From NCBI GenBank assembly GCA_038062895.1, contig JBBTWJ010000006.1, forward strand, positions 48,862-112,861: DNA of 64,000 bases, read 5' to 3'. Under the pieces are notes generated by a model, which was given only the letters and a program-made list of their open reading frames with translations, did not search any database and had not been told where the DNA came from. The translations under genes and the position numbers were made by a program. Of this stretch, positions 10,253 to 15,924 are shown one piece after another. Numbering within the stretch: position 1 is the first letter of the stretch; the number at the start of each line of letters is the position of its first letter. Source of the stretch: Patescibacteria group bacterium. GTDB lineage: Bacteria > Patescibacteriota > Microgenomatia > UBA10105 > UBA927.

Positions 10253-10279
10253 AGGGATCAATTTGCCTGCGGCCGCAAA
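10253..10279. repeat. degenerate half-copy of the 40-bp palindrome found at 11106-11145
   Basis: agggatcaatttgcctgcggccgcaaa matches 25/27 with agggatcaatttacttgcggccgcaat at 11106-11132; overlaps the stop codon and last codons of the PaaX-like gene. Confidence 0.6.
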
Positions 10280-11079
10280 GATTTTGACACCGATAGAAGT
10301 TGAGATTTAACGAGCGCGTTGGCTTTATCCCCCTTCCACCACGGCGGAAGAAGAGCAAACGGGAGTTGCGGATCGTCATTTAAAATCGCAAGGCAACGGA
10401 TCAATGCAAAATGATCAATGCCATCGAGTTCTTCCACGGAAGACAACCACTTTTCATATCGATCATTAAGATTTTCGAGTTTGTAGACCCGAACCAAAAG
10501 TGCCCGAAGGTCTTCCTCGCCAACTGCACCGTCTTTACCCAAATCAGAAACGATGACCGTTCCGGATAACTCTTTTTCGTCGACAAATGACCGAACAAGG
10601 TCTATAGGATTGTATGGTGTAATCCAAACCGACTCTTGTAGCATGGCACAACCAATTCTCCTAAGGAACTCCCTGAGCAGCTCCCGGTCAATCTTTCTGC
10701 TTTCGGGTATATCATAGGTCACCAAATGCATCCGTCCATCCCACGTACGCTTGTCATCGTATTGTGGAATAATCGAAGCTAGCCGCAACTTTCCTTTCCC
10801 CGTAATCTCCGGCAGCGCATTTCGCCGACGTGTCTTTATCCATCCGTTACGCCGAGCCATCTTAAGTGCATTCTTGATGACATCATAGTTAACCTGGTAT
10901 AAATAATGATCTGCTGCAATTTGCGCCCGCCACACCTGACCGGAGGTAGATTGTGGAAGACCAACTTCTCCCATATAAACTACGGTCCACAATGCCAAGT
11001 CGACGGCATGAGAAAATAATCCTTCTGCCAAGGCAAGAGCCGCTCTACTCATAGCTCTCGTAATACCTTTCTTTCTCAT
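10258..11079 (-). CDS. PaaX-like putative transcriptional regulator with Cas2-like core motif
   Basis: 273 aa; central segment HLVTYDIPESRKIDRELLREFLRRIGCAMLQESVWITP matches the Cas2/PaaX-type fold signature (VTYDI...R...LQxSVW); flanked by the palindrome and its partial copy. Confidence 0.5.
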   Translation of the reverse strand: MRKKGITRAMSRAALALAEGLFSHAVDLALWTVVYMGEVGLPQSTSGQVWRAQIAADHYLYQVNYDVIKNALKMARRNGWIKTRRRNALPEITGKGKLRLASIIPQYDDKRTWDGRMHLVTYDIPESRKIDRELLREFLRRIGCAMLQESVWITPYNPIDLVRSFVDEKELSGTVIVSDLGKDGAVGEEDLRALLVRVYKLENLNDRYEKWLSSVEELDGIDHFALIRCLAILNDDPQLPFALLPPWWKGDKANALVKSQLLSVSKSLRPQAN

Positions 11080-11208: not shown

Positions 11209-11856
11209 ATGACGACAACATTTATCCTAATCCGGCACGGAGAAACGAGGTGGAATCTACAAAGAAAGTTAATGGGCGTTACCGATATCCCCCTCAACGC
11301 CACAGGAAAAAAGCAGGCGAAAGCGGTTGCCAAGCACCTAGCGTCGTATCCGCTCGACATTATCTTCACATCTCCGCTCACCCGCACACGCCAAACCGCC
11401 CGCATCATCCATAGTTTTCATCCAAACATTTCACTCATAACCAAAAACGATCTCCGAGAGCGTAACTTTGGAATAGCCGAAGGATTCGGATACCAAAACG
11501 CCAATGTCCTCTACCCGCAGCTCATTTACAACGAAACGTGGAAATATCACCATTTCCGGCCTCAAAACGGGGAATCACTTGCAGAGATAGAAAAACGTGC
11601 CGACACCTTCCTCTCATGGGTACTTAATGCATACAAAGGCAAAAAAATCGCCATTATATCTCATGGTACTTTTTTGCGTGTCCTCATCTGTCGCCTTATG
11701 GAGATTCCATTGTTAGACTTCACGAGAAACCATATGGACAATACCGCGATCACGATACTGCAACATACGACCGGCTACGGGGCTACTATCCATGTCGCTA
11801 ACGACACAGCTCATCTTCCTACTCTCGTAAAAAAGGTCGAAAAAAGAAGCAACTAG
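11209..11856 (+). CDS. histidine phosphatase family protein (phosphoglycerate mutase-like)
   Basis: 215 aa; catalytic RHGETRWN motif at N-terminus and downstream H of the His-phosphatase superfamily. Confidence 0.85.
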   Translation: MTTTFILIRHGETRWNLQRKLMGVTDIPLNATGKKQAKAVAKHLASYPLDIIFTSPLTRTRQTARIIHSFHPNISLITKNDLRERNFGIAEGFGYQNANVLYPQLIYNETWKYHHFRPQNGESLAEIEKRADTFLSWVLNAYKGKKIAIISHGTFLRVLICRLMEIPLLDFTRNHMDNTAITILQHTTGYGATIHVANDTAHLPTLVKKVEKRSN

Positions 11857-12320
11857 AGAGGGTATTCTTTTGAGAATTGGCTCTTATTACCGGAGATATT
11901 GGTAAATTCAAGAACCACAGAAACACTCTTGACTCCAGGATGAGGCCTACAGACATTACGGGAACACGTTCCCAAGTAAATATCATCCCGGATAAATGAA
12001 TCTTTCCCCGATACATCAAGCGGCTTGCTGGTCACCCCCTGCACAATTCCCTGACTGTCATAACTAAGTTCATACGCGACCGTCCGCACTTTCCCGCCAA
12101 GACCATTCACTGATAAAACAACCGTATTATCCTTCAGTTTGCTTTTGGTAAGTTCTACGACAATGGCAGGATCTAAAGTTTCCAATGTTTCTACCGGAAC
12201 CTGTTCGTCCACCACCTGTTTAACTTCTGGAGTTGGGGCAAGTGCTTTATATATCACAAATCCCGTCCCAATCAATAAAATCCCTAACGCAGCAACGGCG
12301 ATAATCATCTTATTTTTCAT
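11853..12320 (-). CDS. hypothetical membrane-anchored/secreted protein
   Basis: 155 aa; N-terminal hydrophobic segment MKNKMIIAVAALGILLIGTGFVIY then hydrophilic domain; no recognisable family. Confidence 0.45.
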   Translation of the reverse strand: MKNKMIIAVAALGILLIGTGFVIYKALAPTPEVKQVVDEQVPVETLETLDPAIVVELTKSKLKDNTVVLSVNGLGGKVRTVAYELSYDSQGIVQGVTSKPLDVSGKDSFIRDDIYLGTCSRNVCRPHPGVKSVSVVLEFTNISGNKSQFSKEYPL

Positions 12321-12334
12321 AGTACCTCCTCAAT

Positions 12335-13732
12335 CTATATCATTAACTTGCTCTCAATATATGCTTTGAGCTGCTCAATGCTCACCCGTTCCTGTTTGGT
12401 GGTATCCCGATCCCGCACCGTCACGGTGTCACTTTCCAGCGTATCATAATCGATGGTGATACACCACGGAGTACCGATCTCATCCTGTGCATAATACCGC
12501 TTCCCGATATTCCCCCGATCATCCCAGGCTGTGGATAGTTTCAATGTTAATTTCAGGTGCTTATATACCTCTTGCGCTTTCGCCGTGATCTCCGGCTTGT
12601 TGCGCACCAATGGAAAAACAGCCACCGTATATGGCGATAACCTCGGATGAAGTTTTAGATAAATACGTTCTCCCTCCTCGCGGTATGCATCAAGCAGTAA
12701 AAATAGAAACGTGCGATCGACTCCCCCAGAAGTTTCCACGATCCACGGGATAAATTTTTCTCCGGTTTCTAAATCGGTATACGTGAAATCATGACCGCTG
12801 TATTGCCCATGGCGGGATAAATCCCAATCACCTCTCCAATGGATTCCTTCTCCTTCTTTCCAGCCCATCGGGGTCTTGTACTCAATATCAAAAGCTTTCT
12901 TGGCATAATGAGCAAGCTCATCATCCCGATGCTGACGAAATCTCAAATTATCTTTATCGTTAAATAAGCTTCTGTACCAATTCATTCGTTGTTCCTTCCA
13001 ATACTCATACCATGTATCCATGGCCTTGGGATTGACAAAAAACTGCATATCCCACTGCTCAAATTCCTTGAGTCTCAACATAAATTGGGGATTAGCCACT
13101 TCATTACGAAATGCTTTTCCAATTTGGGCAATTCCAAAGGGAATCTTGGGATGCATGCTGTCTAAAACGTTTTGATAATCGAGGTAAATAGTTTGACATG
13201 CCTCGCCTTTCAAATATGCGCTTTTTTTGTCACCCTCTACCACCCCCAATGACGTTTCTACCATCAAGCTGAACTTTTTTACCTCCCCCAAAATTCCCCC
13301 ATCCGGAGCTTTTTTCCCTTTTAGTAATTTCGAATAAGCCTCAATAACACTGATCCCTTCTTTTTTTGCCGCTGCATCCGCAGACGCGAGTTCTTCTGGG
13401 GAATACATTTCTTCTATCAAGTGATCAGCGCGATACCTCTTGTTGCCCATCGGGCCACCAACGGATTCAACCATCGCATCGGCAAAGCTGCCCACATGCC
13501 CTGACGCTTCCCACACCTTCGGATGAGTAATAATTGTTCCGTCGATAGGAAAAATATTTTCGTGGTCAACCAGCATGAACTCCCAAAAGAGTTTTTTCAT
13601 GTTTTGACGCAGAAGATGCCCCATTGGTCCCATGTCATAAAATCCCGCGATCCCACCATAAATCTCCGAATTAGGATACACAAATCCCCGGCGCTTACAG
13701 AGAGAAACAATTTTTTCCATTACATTTTCCAT
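12335..13732 (-). CDS. glyQS: glycine--tRNA ligase (alpha2 dimeric class II GlyRS)
   Basis: 465 aa; SLCKRRGFVYPNSEIYGGIAGFYDMGPMG and class II aaRS motifs; downstream of glyA in same orientation. Confidence 0.9.
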   Translation of the reverse strand: MENVMEKIVSLCKRRGFVYPNSEIYGGIAGFYDMGPMGHLLRQNMKKLFWEFMLVDHENIFPIDGTIITHPKVWEASGHVGSFADAMVESVGGPMGNKRYRADHLIEEMYSPEELASADAAAKKEGISVIEAYSKLLKGKKAPDGGILGEVKKFSLMVETSLGVVEGDKKSAYLKGEACQTIYLDYQNVLDSMHPKIPFGIAQIGKAFRNEVANPQFMLRLKEFEQWDMQFFVNPKAMDTWYEYWKEQRMNWYRSLFNDKDNLRFRQHRDDELAHYAKKAFDIEYKTPMGWKEGEGIHWRGDWDLSRHGQYSGHDFTYTDLETGEKFIPWIVETSGGVDRTFLFLLLDAYREEGERIYLKLHPRLSPYTVAVFPLVRNKPEITAKAQEVYKHLKLTLKLSTAWDDRGNIGKRYYAQDEIGTPWCITIDYDTLESDTVTVRDRDTTKQERVSIEQLKAYIESKLMI

Positions 13733-13761: not shown

Positions 13762-14997
13762 TTAAATAGAATTGAAACAGTAATGCACAGACTGATACGC
13801 GTGACGAATTTGGACCACCTCCCTTCTGATCGTTTCAGGCTTTTTTCTATGAAACAATACTGACGCTATTAGCTTGGCAACAATTCTCATTTCCTTTTCC
13901 TTCATCCCCAGGCGCGTTATTTCATTGGTTCCGATCCGAATTCCAGTCGAATTATTTTCATGGTTCCATGGTAATTGGAACGAATTGACAATAATTTGTG
14001 CCTTTTCAAGTATCCGCATTGCCTCGTTTCCTGAACACTTTGCATCAAATAATACCGTATGGCTCTGTGTAAAATTTTTGTGAGGACAAAGAACGTCAAC
14101 CCCTTGGTTATACAGCTCTTGGGCAAGCGCCTGCGCGTTTTTTATTACCTGCGTCGCGTAATCATGTCCGTACTCTTCAAACTCGGCAAGCGTTATCGCC
14201 AATCCCGCGATATGATGCGGGTGATGATTGGAAGTAAAAAGCGGCACAATTGCATGCTCAATGCTGCTGCGAAATCGTATTTTGTCATTGCAGGCAACTA
14301 ATCCATGACTGGGTGCGGACAAGGTTTTATTCGTACTCATCGAGAGTATATCAGCTCCCTCTGACAACGGATTTTGAAATGTTTGTCCTGCAATAAGTCC
14401 GGATACATGGGCGGCATCATAGATAATTTTTGTCTCTGTCTCATCACAAACTTTTCTCAGCTCCCGGAGCGGAATCGGAAAAAGAAACTCAGAAGTCCCT
14501 ACAATGATCGCGTTTGGCTTTTTTTGTCGTATAAGCATCACCGTTTTTTCCAAGTCTATGGTGTAGTCTTTTTCATCAAACGGTATCGGCTCAAGCCGTA
14601 CATCAAATAATGAAAGTATTCCTGTATTTCCATGACTGTAGTGTCCGCTGTGTTTCACTGGCAATGAAAAAATAAGATCATGAGGTTTCAGGAGTGCATA
14701 ATACGCAACCATATTTGCCACCATTCCTGAAATAGGCTGGAGATTGACATACTGAGCATGAAAAAGATTTTTTGCCGTAGTGACAGCCTCTTTTTCTATT
14801 TTGTCGTAATAGACACATCCGGGATACCATCGCTTGTTTATCTGCCCGACGGTATAACGATTCCCCAAATCTGTCGCAAGTGCCGCCTGCGCTCCCGGAC
14901 TCATAAGGTTTTCGGAAGCTATAAGATTAAGACACTCGCTCCGATACCGAGAGTGCTGATTGATATAATTCCAAATGTTGCAATGATGTTTGATCAT
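13762..14997 (-). CDS. glyA: serine hydroxymethyltransferase
   Basis: Supplied ORF extends to 15078, but that N-terminus is the T-box leader; likely start Met at 14997 (MIKHHCNIW...LNLIASENLMSPG); conserved SHMT motifs (IASEN, PLP-Lys region). Confidence 0.85.
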   Translation of the reverse strand: MIKHHCNIWNYINQHSRYRSECLNLIASENLMSPGAQAALATDLGNRYTVGQINKRWYPGCVYYDKIEKEAVTTAKNLFHAQYVNLQPISGMVANMVAYYALLKPHDLIFSLPVKHSGHYSHGNTGILSLFDVRLEPIPFDEKDYTIDLEKTVMLIRQKKPNAIIVGTSEFLFPIPLRELRKVCDETETKIIYDAAHVSGLIAGQTFQNPLSEGADILSMSTNKTLSAPSHGLVACNDKIRFRSSIEHAIVPLFTSNHHPHHIAGLAITLAEFEEYGHDYATQVIKNAQALAQELYNQGVDVLCPHKNFTQSHTVLFDAKCSGNEAMRILEKAQIIVNSFQLPWNHENNSTGIRIGTNEITRLGMKEKEMRIVAKLIASVLFHRKKPETIRREVVQIRHAYQSVHYCFNSI

Positions 14998-15000
14998 ACA

Positions 15001-15177
15001 TTTACCCACAAAAAAACCGTCCTCACACAGTACACCCGTACCATGTAGGGACGGCCTCAATAAAAGGCGCGGTTCCACCCTACTTAGTGAGACATGATAT
15101 TCCAGTCATCTCACCCACTTCATTCACTTGTGACTCCCACTTGCCAAAGATGGTACAAACGTCACTATTCAATTTTT
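15001..15177 (-). promoter_or_regulatory. T-box riboswitch-like leader, unit 1 (antiterminator/terminator immediately upstream of glyA)
   Basis: Minus strand contains AAGUAGGGUGGAACCGCGCC (15086-15067), the T-box consensus AGGGUGGNACCGCG with a UGGA bulge; GUAGGG pairs with CCCUAC to form an antiterminator; mutually exclusive terminator CCGUCC..GGACGG followed by U7 at 15054-15010, ending 12 nt before the glyA ATG; candidate Gly codon GGC at 15145-15143. Confidence 0.55.
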
Positions 15178-15320
15178 TCCACAAAAAAACCTACCACAAT
15201 TATTTGTGATAGGGATCCTGCTTCGCAGGACGGTTCCACCCTACTTCCTTGGATTATCCAAGACACTTCATTTTAAAACTTTAAGCTCCCTCATGCCATT
15301 GAGATCATCGCATTCTTTAA
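15178..15320 (-). promoter_or_regulatory. T-box riboswitch-like leader, unit 2 (tandem upstream copy)
   Basis: Second AAGUAGGGUGGAACCGUCC (15247-15229); small hairpin UCCUGC-GAA-GCAGGA; terminator CCUAUCACAA-AUAA-UUGUGGUAGG plus U7 (15214-15183); same 3' context UUUUUUUGUGG as unit 1. Confidence 0.5.
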
Positions 15321-15323
15321 ACG

Positions 15324-15352
15324 ATATTATCAATTTTAAAAACCAAAATCAA
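15324..15352 (-). promoter_or_regulatory. sigma70-like promoter for the T-box leader/glyA-glyQS operon
   Basis: Minus strand TTGATT (15352-15347), 17 nt, TAATAT (15329-15324), immediately downstream of the recO stop. Confidence 0.45.
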
Positions 15353-15363
15353 TGACCAAAATA

Positions 15364-15924
15364 TCACGCCAGTTGGGTGAGAAACTTGGGTGTGCGGAGG
15401 CGCTTCTCTATAATTTTTTCAATATATGGATCTATCCTCCCTGCTGGGATACTCTGGTCATGGGCAAGGTACCCAAGGACCCGGAGAAGTTCAAGAGCGT
15501 ACTGTTCATTTGTAACTACTGTGTCAATCTCCATAATACCGTTAAGCGTGTGTAATGCCCCAAGAAGTAGCGCATACACATCCCGGTGTTCCTGCCTCTC
15601 CGGCAAAAGAGCATCGACGAGTTCACAAACATAATACCCAGCGCTTACCCGGGTTAAACTCTCCCGAAGAGATGAAAATGTATGGATAGGAGTCGCTTCT
15701 GTCACGCTATCCCACATTTTTCCTTTGTAAAGGACGAGCGATACATGAGAAAAGACCTCCAGATGGGGAGCCCGACGGCTATGGACGCGGCGTATCCCTT
15801 TAGCGATTACTCTCATCCGACCGTATTCCTTCGTAAATATGGTGACTATACGATCCGCTTCGCCTACGTTACGTCGTTTAAGGATGATTGCATGCGTCGT
15901 GTAGACCCGGCTCAAAGGGGTCAT
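15364..15924 (-). CDS. recO: DNA repair protein RecO
   Basis: 186 aa; N-terminal OB-fold pattern THAIILKRRNVGEADRIVTIFTKEYG characteristic of RecO. Confidence 0.7.
   Translation of the reverse strand: MTPLSRVYTTHAIILKRRNVGEADRIVTIFTKEYGRMRVIAKGIRRVHSRRAPHLEVFSHVSLVLYKGKMWDSVTEATPIHTFSSLRESLTRVSAGYYVCELVDALLPERQEHRDVYALLLGALHTLNGIMEIDTVVTNEQYALELLRVLGYLAHDQSIPAGRIDPYIEKIIEKRLRTPKFLTQLA

Follow-up and report, generated by a model that had tools for sequence, protein, structure and literature searches.

How are the synthesis of glycine and its attachment to tRNA controlled in a bacterium that carries the genes for serine hydroxymethyltransferase (SHMT) and glycyl-tRNA synthetase (GlyRS) side by side? 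The question is raised by a 366-nt spacer between recO and glyA in a Patescibacteria group bacterium (NCBI GenBank assembly GCA_038062895.1, contig JBBTWJ010000006.1). We analysed a stretch of 64,000 nucleotides of this contig (positions 48,862 to 112,861 of the forward strand; hereafter the window), in which the minus strand carries, in order, recO, the spacer, glyA (SHMT), a 29-nt gap, glyS (GlyRS) and an open reading frame (ORF) of 155 aa. A first-pass annotation, made from the letters alone, had proposed that a tandem T-box leader places glyA and glyQS under joint control of uncharged tRNA-Gly. We find that the leader very probably consists of two complete glycine T-boxes in series, both miniature and both transcriptional, serving a glyA-glyS transcript. 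The evidence lies in the sequence elements, in folds that exclude each other, in conservation and covariation, in the association with glycine genes and in where the promoters sit. Joint control of SHMT and GlyRS by tRNA-Gly is thus supported as an interpretation: significant matches to the T-box family RF00230 were obtained, a Stem I hairpin with a specifier is present, and glyA does not start at 15078. The second gene, on the other hand, had been misnamed, as the synthetase is the dimeric GlyRS encoded by a single gene (NF003211) and not glyQS. Coordinates of the features are collected in Table 1.

The two T-box sequences, AAGUAGGGUGGAACCGUCC at 15246-15228 and AAGUAGGGUGGAACCGCGCC at 15085-15066 on the minus strand, are 161 nt apart. 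The first-pass spacing of about 160 nt therefore stands, and its coordinates for the two boxes are one base too high. Here the 5' unit is called unit 1 and the gene-proximal unit is called unit 2, the latter having been unit 1 of the earlier annotation. Each unit folds into an antiterminator in which a 7-nt bulge of the UGGNACC type separates helices A1 and A2, with a G.U pair atop the bulge. In unit 1, A1 is GUAGGG/CCCUAU, the bulge UGGAACC lies at 15238-15232 and A2 is GUCCUGC/GCAGGAU; in unit 2 the corresponding parts are GUAGGG/CCCUAC, UGGAACC at 15077-15071 and GCGCC.../...GGCCGU. Stem III is formed by UCUUGGA/UCCAAGG in unit 1 and by the longer GGUGAGAUGA...UCAUGUCUCACU in unit 2, where its loop carries the motif ACUGGAnnAUCAU. 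Both copies are preceded by AAGUG and followed by AA, in keeping with the RRRxG-Stem III-AA rule for the T-box discriminator (PMC11404447). The UGGA(ACC) bulge is typical of glycyl T-boxes (PMC11404447) and the genes downstream encode SHMT and GlyRS, which bears out the glycine assignment made earlier.

Each antiterminator shares a strand with an intrinsic terminator. The folds agree with the first-pass proposal that GUAGGG pairs with a downstream strand which is reused by a terminator followed by seven U residues. In unit 1, CCCUAU serves both as the 3' strand of A1 and in the 5' strand of the terminator, CCUAUCACAA/UUGUGGUAGG (hairpin 15213-15190, -12.6 kcal/mol). The terminator of unit 2 is a long hairpin, GGCCGUCC...GGACGG(U), which overlaps the 3' strands of both A2 and A1 and is stronger (15055-15017, -25.2 kcal/mol). 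Its U7 tract occupies 15016-15010 and, as had been noted, ends 12 nt before the glyA start codon at 14997.

Upstream of the discriminator each unit carries a hairpin that we read as a miniature Stem I. In unit 1, a C-stem AUGC/GCUU is followed by a 3-nt bulge GAU, the sheared G.A and A.G pairs of a K-turn, a 4-bp helix UCUC/GAGG and an 8-nt terminal loop, AAUGGCAU. The loop presents GGC at 15297-15295, followed by a conserved A, 51 nt upstream of the box. In a joint RF00230 alignment the segment UGCGAUGA...GGAGCUU falls on the K-turn positions of the model; the K-turn strands, UGC-GAU-GA...GA-GCU, are recognised as a sequence pattern only. An A/U-rich linker of 21 nt, ending in AAGUG, leads from there to Stem III. 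In unit 2 the C-stem is GUGAC/GUCAC, an irregular kink sets GUUUGUA on the 5' strand opposite GA on the 3' strand, and a short CC(A)/(U)GG helix closes a loop of 11-13 nt, UCUUUGGCAAG. Here GGC lies at 15145-15143, again with A next to it, 60 nt upstream of the box, and both distances fall within the 50-60 nt that had been estimated for candidate specifiers. GGC-A matches the glycine genes downstream in both units. When Stem I is folded by itself, the minimum free energy structure misses the K-turn hairpin, which is unsurprising given its non-canonical pairs, and this outcome was given no weight in either direction. The earlier expectation of a Stem I with a specifier holds in that both units have a GGC-A hairpin, with covariation in relatives, and fails as regards canonical form, since the hairpin is miniature and has no distal platform. 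Neither unit has the long Stem I of class I T-boxes, with its AG bulge and distal interdigitated T-loops. Neither shows the Stem II S-turn, IIA/B pseudoknot or Shine-Dalgarno sequestrator of the class II ileS type, with which they have the short Stem I alone in common.

Both units were compared with covariance models. At the gathering score, Rfam reports no family anywhere in the 64 kb. In E-value mode, RF00230 matches the leader with 38 bits (E 5e-7) by joining the unit 1 K-turn to the unit 2 discriminator, and in local searches of the single units it gives 30.2 and 31.8 bits (E 2e-5 and 8e-6). The check suggested with the first-pass annotation thus returned significant matches to both units, at scores far under the gathering score. 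These alignments delete 75-86 model positions, corresponding to the body of Stem I and Stem II, and align the 3' half together with the K-turn strands. We also built our own covariance model, R1, from 34 miniature units of relatives, a seed from which unit 2 was absent. R1 aligns unit 2 end to end (50 bits, E 3.5e-12) and finds the two leader units and nothing else in the window. Other weak Rfam matches, including ncr952 and rli38, were rejected as chance matches to the terminator region (E >= 1).

The nearest SHMT homologues come from metagenome-assembled genomes of Candidatus Gottesmanbacteria and Patescibacteria (L001, 89% identical; L002, 86%), and both of these loci keep the entire tandem leader. 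Stem III of unit 1 is rebuilt by compensatory replacements to GUCCGAU/AUCGGAC in L001 and UCCCA/UGGGA in L002, A2 of unit 1 covaries to UCCCGC/GCGGGA in L001, and in both loci the terminator stem of unit 1 is replaced by CCCUAGCAUA/UAUGUUAGGG. The Stem I of unit 2 is identical in L001 and shows an A-to-G change that keeps a G.U pair in L002 and L046. The terminator of unit 2 is kept in L001 and L002, with loop indels and a U8 tract.

The miniature Stem I is not peculiar to this locus. We searched metagenomes with the pattern GATGA-N7-GGMA-N4-GGAG-N{35,65}-GGGTGGAACC, in which all stem positions are N, and obtained matches in 37 loci, 35 of which are leaders of glycine genes. Where a gene can be seen downstream of these 35, it mostly encodes dimeric GlyRS (31-64% identical to that of the window); the others are genes for CPR-type SHMT, CPR denoting the candidate phyla radiation, classical glyQ-glyS(beta) operons (L042, L048) and a PurU-like gene followed by GlyRS (L026). 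The G+C content of the loci ranges from 33 to 66%; homologue searches place one group in uncultured gut Clostridia, and another belongs to Patescibacteria. The common element is a K-turn, 3-4 bp and a loop of 7-9 nt that holds the codon, with no distal platform. Although the pattern does not require it, every match has Watson-Crick or G.U pairing at all three inner stem positions. The 44 distinct units between them have 17 different 3-bp helices, the loop measures 8 nt in 39, and the position beside the G.A pairs is A.G, U.G, G.G or A.A, as expected for the 3b.3n position of a K-turn. The in-register triplet is GGC in 40 of the 44 units and GGA in the other 4, always with A next (after correction of a misregister in L045), and in the other frames of the loop the encoded amino acid is not constant. 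GGA, still a glycine codon, replaces GGC in unit 2 of L019 and in L031 and L032. The bulge is UGGAACC in all units.

Covariation was assessed in a MAFFT alignment of 34 units; inclusion required some pairing, and the unfiltered pattern matches pair alike. Cells expected to pair do so in 86% of cases, compared with 66% in shuffles and 39-52% with slid partners, and double-change cells number 161 where 57 were expected. In the inner helix of Stem I, 96% of cells are paired and each pair shows 12-17 double changes, helix A1 is 100% paired, and helix A2 is 92% paired with double changes in 4 of 5 pairs. The AA after Stem III is invariant, the G and A of both K-turn strands are invariant or nearly so, and the 3b.3n position is mostly non-Watson-Crick. 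A second, model-based alignment of 59 matches, which leans towards its model, is 92% paired, and the outer Stem III pairs covary in both alignments. By eye, Stem I and Stem III are joined by an A-rich linker of about 10-25 nt, whose shortness and lack of conservation leave no place for a Stem II or pseudoknot. Hairpin and U-run terminators close many of the units, among them the two of the window; the 3' units of L029/L033, L030 and L032 seem to occlude the Shine-Dalgarno sequence instead, in the manner of a sequestrator. In a scan of 19 loci, every miniature unit stayed below the Rfam gathering score (RF00230 34-59 bits).

Two pattern matches, L051:316-419 and L052:1443-1555, were treated as chance: they are GC-rich and coding-like, with no promoter and no 3' strand for A1, although their mini hairpin is fully paired and R1 gives 20-21 bits. 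Miniature glycine T-boxes also precede glyQ (alpha)-glyS (beta) pairs in L042:10439-11480 and in L048 (minus strand, about 1888-1992), which shows that the class is tied neither to dimeric GlyRS nor to the CPR; a canonical T-box (130 bits) lies elsewhere on the L048 contig. In L026:3449-5879 a single miniature glycine T-box is followed by a 282-aa ORF and then GlyRS. By eye, the ORF looks like a formyltetrahydrofolate deformylase, with an ACT domain and a formyltransferase domain, which would be a further link between tRNA-Gly sensing and one-carbon metabolism.

Comparison of loci with and without glyA indicates which gene the leader belongs to. A tandem leader lies upstream of glyA in L001, L002, L017-L020, L029, L033, L035, L036 and L046 (SHMT 55-89% identical). 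At least 10 related genomes conserve the leader in full, and 11 of 13 informative glyA loci are tandem. The more distant CPR loci among them, L017 (71%), L018 (65%), L019 (59%) and L020 (55%), have long spacers with two UGGA units each. The 5' units of L017 and L020 have a canonical long Stem I, with GA motif, AGUA, distal loops and GAA-(N)-GGC-purine (RF00230 71-78 bits), and their 3' units, like both units of L018 and L019, have the miniature form. The units of L019 read GGC and GGA and would need two isoacceptors. Conserved Stem III loop types differ between 5' and 3' units across lineages, and the tandem design is ancient in glyA leaders. The still more distant SHMT loci L003-L010 (29-35% identity) have no T-box. 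GlyRS relatives without glyA (L011-L013, 79% identical; L014-L016, 66-67%) likewise have none. Full synteny of ManC, Bac_transf, DUF4012, RecO and GlyRS is kept in L011, L013 and L016, L014 keeps DUF4012, RecO and GlyRS with extra genes interspersed, and recO lies 48 nt ahead of glyS in L011 and L012. A T-box belonging to glyS was ruled out on these grounds, since recO abuts glyS in the relatives that lack both glyA and T-box. We conclude that the leader arrived together with glyA and remains linked to it; glyS would be regulated through its downstream position. The absence of glyA and its leader from the syntenic recO-glyS locus of related Gottesmanbacteria suggests that a glyA cassette was inserted or lost.

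The swapped unit listed in Table 1 bears directly on the function of the mini hairpin. L029 and L033/L035 share 84% DNA identity over a segment that begins at unit 1 Stem III and takes in unit 2 and the SHMT gene. Ahead of that segment, L029 has a canonical long Stem I (GGC-A), L033/L035 have the mini hairpin, and the promoters are separate. Evolution has thus exchanged both forms at one riboswitch, an argument that the mini hairpin fills the role of Stem I.

The position of the promoters argues against a longer Stem I hidden upstream. As noted in the first pass, TTGATT-17-TAATAT is present just after recO, and the start of transcription is predicted at about 15317, some 3-6 nt ahead of unit 1 Stem I. 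Better hexamers occupy the equivalent position in L002 (TTGACT-17-TAAAAT) and L001 (TTGACA-18-TAGAGT). Among first or single units of relatives, 23 of 24 have a promoter match of at least 9/12 that ends 10-22 nt before the K-turn bulge, compared with 9% of shuffles. Because the promoters abut the K-turn in this way, transcripts should start at the foot of the mini hairpin.

From these features we infer tRNA binding and antitermination, the joint transcription of glyS with glyA and the following logic of regulation. GGC in the loop of the K-turn mini hairpin would pair with the GCC anticodon of tRNA-Gly, and UGGA in the bulge would pair with the free UCCA 3' end of the uncharged tRNA. The second contact would stabilise the antiterminator, comprising Stem III, A1 and A2, and block the overlapping terminator. 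Charged tRNA could not stabilise the antiterminator, and transcription would stop at U7. Polymerase would have to clear two terminators, making read-through the product of two decisions, so that expression should be low at base level and rise steeply as the charging of tRNA-Gly declines. Read-through would raise both SHMT, which makes glycine from serine, and GlyRS, which charges it, and so couple synthesis and charging to the charging level of tRNA-Gly.

Several points weigh against this reading. The RF00230 scores of 30-38 bits compare with a gathering score of 93. The TTGATT-17-TAATAT promoter matches 8/12 consensus positions and was omitted by the promoter scan, which listed other weak sites inside the leader. 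An internal promoter within the 3' end of glyA may serve glyS. The kink of unit 2 lacks the canonical 5' GA, keeping GA on the 3' strand only, and its inner helix shows no covariation of its own among four near-identical copies. ARAGORN found no tRNA gene in the 64-kb window and no tRNA-Gly in the 45 fetched loci scanned with it; the GCC anticodon and U73 of the host tRNA-Gly are what we assume from general bacterial knowledge. Finally, transcriptional T-boxes are generally held to require a long Stem I, and a truncated Stem I without Stem II barely binds tRNA (PMC7583486). By this rule, a unit with neither platform nor Stem II should work badly unless something compensates. A possible answer lies in the codon itself, because an all-G-C GGC:GCC helix probably makes lateral support and Stem II dispensable in glycyl T-boxes (PMC11404447), and the strength of three G-C pairs may also permit the loss of the platform. 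The frequent tandem layout could make up for single units that bind more weakly or more slowly. On balance we lean, with some reserve, towards a natural minimal T-box of about 100 nt, which would rely on codon-anticodon loop-loop and 3'-end/discriminator contacts only and still terminate co-transcriptionally, and which would be widespread, interchangeable with the long Stem I and missed by Rfam.

Two other accounts accept most of the structure and have to be weighed against two working sensors. It is unlikely, in our judgement, that only one unit works and that unit 2 is a decaying duplicate, at most a constitutive partial terminator in a system regulated by a single T-box. The off-consensus Stem I of unit 2 (GUUUGUA in place of GAU-GA) and its loop of 11-13 nt would fit such decay, as would its 50 bits with R1 against 72-97 bits for typical miniature units. 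Across the window, L001, L002 and L046, however, unit 2 is better conserved than unit 1, whose variable parts have diverged, and its UGGCA, the flanks of Stem III, the UGGAACC bulge, both antiterminator helices and a strong terminator are all still present. A hairpin of -25 kcal/mol that always stopped transcription ahead of glyA and the essential glyS would be costly, and the tandem layout is retained in 11 of 13 informative glyA loci. Somewhat less likely again is an arrangement in which the mini hairpin is not a specifier and the remnants sense the 3' end of any uncharged U73 tRNA or need a protein or other RNA. The absence of both elbow platform and Stem II, and the barely detectable tRNA binding of a truncated Stem I without Stem II (PMC7583486), would be explained in this way. 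What such an arrangement leaves unaccounted for is the triplet: GGC or GGA followed by A stays in register in 44 of 44 units while the stem beneath it varies through 17 helices, and the exchanges to GGA in L019 unit 2, L031 and L032 leave a glycine codon. That one and the same unit has a long Stem I in L029 and a mini hairpin in the closely related L033 and L035 argues for functional equivalence, and the three G-C pairs of GGC:GCC probably remove the need for lateral support (PMC11404447).

A reading of the region as coding, with glyA starting from GTG at 15078 and the T-box forming part of an N-terminal extension, is barely credible. The reading frame is indeed open from 15078, and the ATG at 14997 lies within this ORF (13762..15078), in frame and with its stop at 13762. 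The SHMT profile match nevertheless begins 7 residues past that ATG, homologues begin at the equivalent ATG, and relatives differ upstream of it by indels of 1-2 nt (U7 vs U8, terminator loops), which would shift the frame and so speak against coding. In L017-L020 the leader lies outside any ORF, and the RNA covariation is strong. The glyA start is therefore kept at ATG 14997, and two miniature glycine T-boxes in series remain the account that we prefer.

Among known systems the closest are the glyQS/glyS T-boxes, represented by glyQS of Bacillus subtilis, Geobacillus kaustophilus and Oceanobacillus iheyensis and by glyS of Staphylococcus aureus. These likewise have GGC and a purine, UGGAACC and a basal K-turn, lack Stem II and the IIA/B pseudoknot, have a purine-flanked Stem III and competing antiterminator and terminator, and control GlyRS. 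Their Stem I measures about 85-100 nt and places distal interdigitated T-loops on the tRNA elbow, whereas here Stem I ends at the specifier, the units measure only about 95-130 nt from promoter to antiterminator, glyA is the first gene and there are two units. Ultrashort Stem I hairpins are reportedly known from actinobacterial (Mycobacterium) ileS T-boxes, in work by Sherwood et al. in 2015. The ileS T-boxes resemble the present units in a Stem I without AG bulge or distal platform and in a specifier at the end of a short hairpin, but they keep Stem II and the IIA/B pseudoknot, which clamps the codon-anticodon helix, sequester the Shine-Dalgarno sequence and read Ile (PMC7583486); the units described here do without Stem II, finish with an intrinsic terminator and carry a Gly specifier. 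Tandem T-boxes of Bacillota (trp, ilv-leu and thr operons, thrS/thrZ) similarly set two sensor and terminator units in series before an amino-acid biosynthesis or aminoacyl-tRNA synthetase (aaRS) operon, where two antitermination events are presumably required (PMC12452182). The present case differs from them in its CPR host, in glycine and in its miniature units. Tandem T-boxes have been described essentially in Bacillota and, among aaRS genes, for thrS only, and glyA is listed solely under tandem glycine riboswitches (PMC12452182). Tandem glycine units also precede glyS in L030/L049 and L032/L047.

A literature search for T-boxes together with CPR, Patescibacteria or SHMT found none, though an earlier mention in Vitreschak et al. 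2008 or Sherwood et al. 2015 is possible, and a search for short or minimal T-boxes found nothing relevant, though older papers may hold a prior short-Stem-I glycine T-box. To our knowledge, the combination of glyQS-like loss of Stem II with an ileS-like ultrashort Stem I has not been described previously. The leader would extend T-box regulation to the candidate phyla radiation and add glyA to the T-box glycine regulon, placing glycine synthesis and charging under one signal in a very reduced metabolism. It would also be a tandem T-box outside Bacillota and a case of tandem control of an aaRS gene other than thrS. Its compact architecture contradicts the working rule that a long Stem I or a Stem II is needed (PMC7583486); if functional, it would be the smallest natural tRNA-sensing switch and would offer a direct test of the purpose of the elbow contact. 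The RF00230 gathering score under-counts T-boxes in annotation pipelines.

Table 1. Features of the glyA-glyS locus and of the exchanged unit in relatives. Coordinates refer to the window unless preceded by a locus number.
Feature	Coordinates	Strand	Basis
recO	15924..15364	-	TIGR00613
Tandem leader between recO and glyA: promoter and two complete T-box units	15352..14998	-	
Putative sigma-70-type promoter TTGATT-17-TAATAT, 12 nt past recO stop	15324..15352	-	sequence; presumed function
Unit 1, whole	15183-15314	-	
Unit 1 miniature Stem I (32 nt)	15283..15314	-	sequence, RF00230 alignment, covariation
Unit 1 Stem III	15247..15263	-	folds
Unit 1 antiterminator	15209..15244	-	folds, RF00230 alignment
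Unit 1 intrinsic terminator with U7	15183..15213	-	terminator scan
Unit 2, whole	15010-15166	-	part order as in unit 1
Unit 2 miniature Stem I (37 nt)	15130..15166	-	R1 alignment
Unit 2 Stem III	15086..15115	-	folds, alignments
Unit 2 antiterminator	15045..15083	-	folds, RF00230 and R1 alignments
Unit 2 intrinsic terminator with U7	15010..15056	-	fold
glyA (SHMT, 411 aa), first regulated gene	13762..14997	-	NF000586, 391 bits vs cut-off 335
glyS, dimeric-type glycine--tRNA ligase (465 aa)	12335..13732	-	NCBIfam NF003211, 544 bits
155-aa ORF, GAGGAGG ribosome-binding site, 14 nt past glyS	11853..12320	-	ORF list
Swapped unit, long Stem I	L029:40-236		RF00230, 77 bits
Swapped unit, mini hairpin	L033:3566-3687, L035:1121-1242		

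The 29-nt gap between glyA and glyS contains an AAGGAGG ribosome-binding site and no terminator, and from its length glyS is probably co-transcribed with glyA. The 155-aa ORF downstream has no match in an NCBIfam search. Its counterpart by synteny in L011 and L013, the acetyltransferase gene after GlyRS, has an Acetyltransf_1 domain, and the ORF is possibly the last gene of the transcript. Judged by its SHMT homologues and by the best named GlyRS homologue, which is from Gottesmanbacteria, the host is a Gottesmanbacteria-like CPR bacterium, in line with the first-pass impression that it is not a Firmicute. The closest non-CPR relatives of the SHMT clade of the window are archaeal (Methanocellales and Hadarchaeales, 43-48% identity), and bacterial SHMTs of the genome collection are just 29-35% identical to the window SHMT.

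Stem III is normally a variable part of T-boxes. The ACUGGAnnAUCAU loop motif of unit 2 recurs across distant CPR lineages, in the 3' units of L017, L018, L020, L024, L026, L029, L030, L055 and L057, and the 5' units of several lineages carry a different Stem III loop motif, ACUUAAGCGAUUAUCGAUAGU. The conserved ACUGGAnnAUCAU loop could serve as a replacement contact with the tRNA.

In L019 a third T-box-like leader follows just past glyA (L019:4270-4560; R1 27 bits), with the box AAAGUGGAACCACGG, a long Stem I of canonical appearance and a U7 terminator. It precedes an operon for aspartate kinase, homoserine dehydrogenase and aspartate-semialdehyde dehydrogenase, and its specifier is possibly ACU (Thr). 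This leader suggests that CPR bacteria use T-boxes for other amino-acid genes too. In the window, a 273-aa protein encoded at 10258-11079 on the minus strand matches the PaaX-type regulator family (TIGR02277) under its cut-off and also matches cas2 over a short stretch (26.4 bits vs cut-off 24.5), and a PaaX_M-domain gene lies near glyS in L014 as well.

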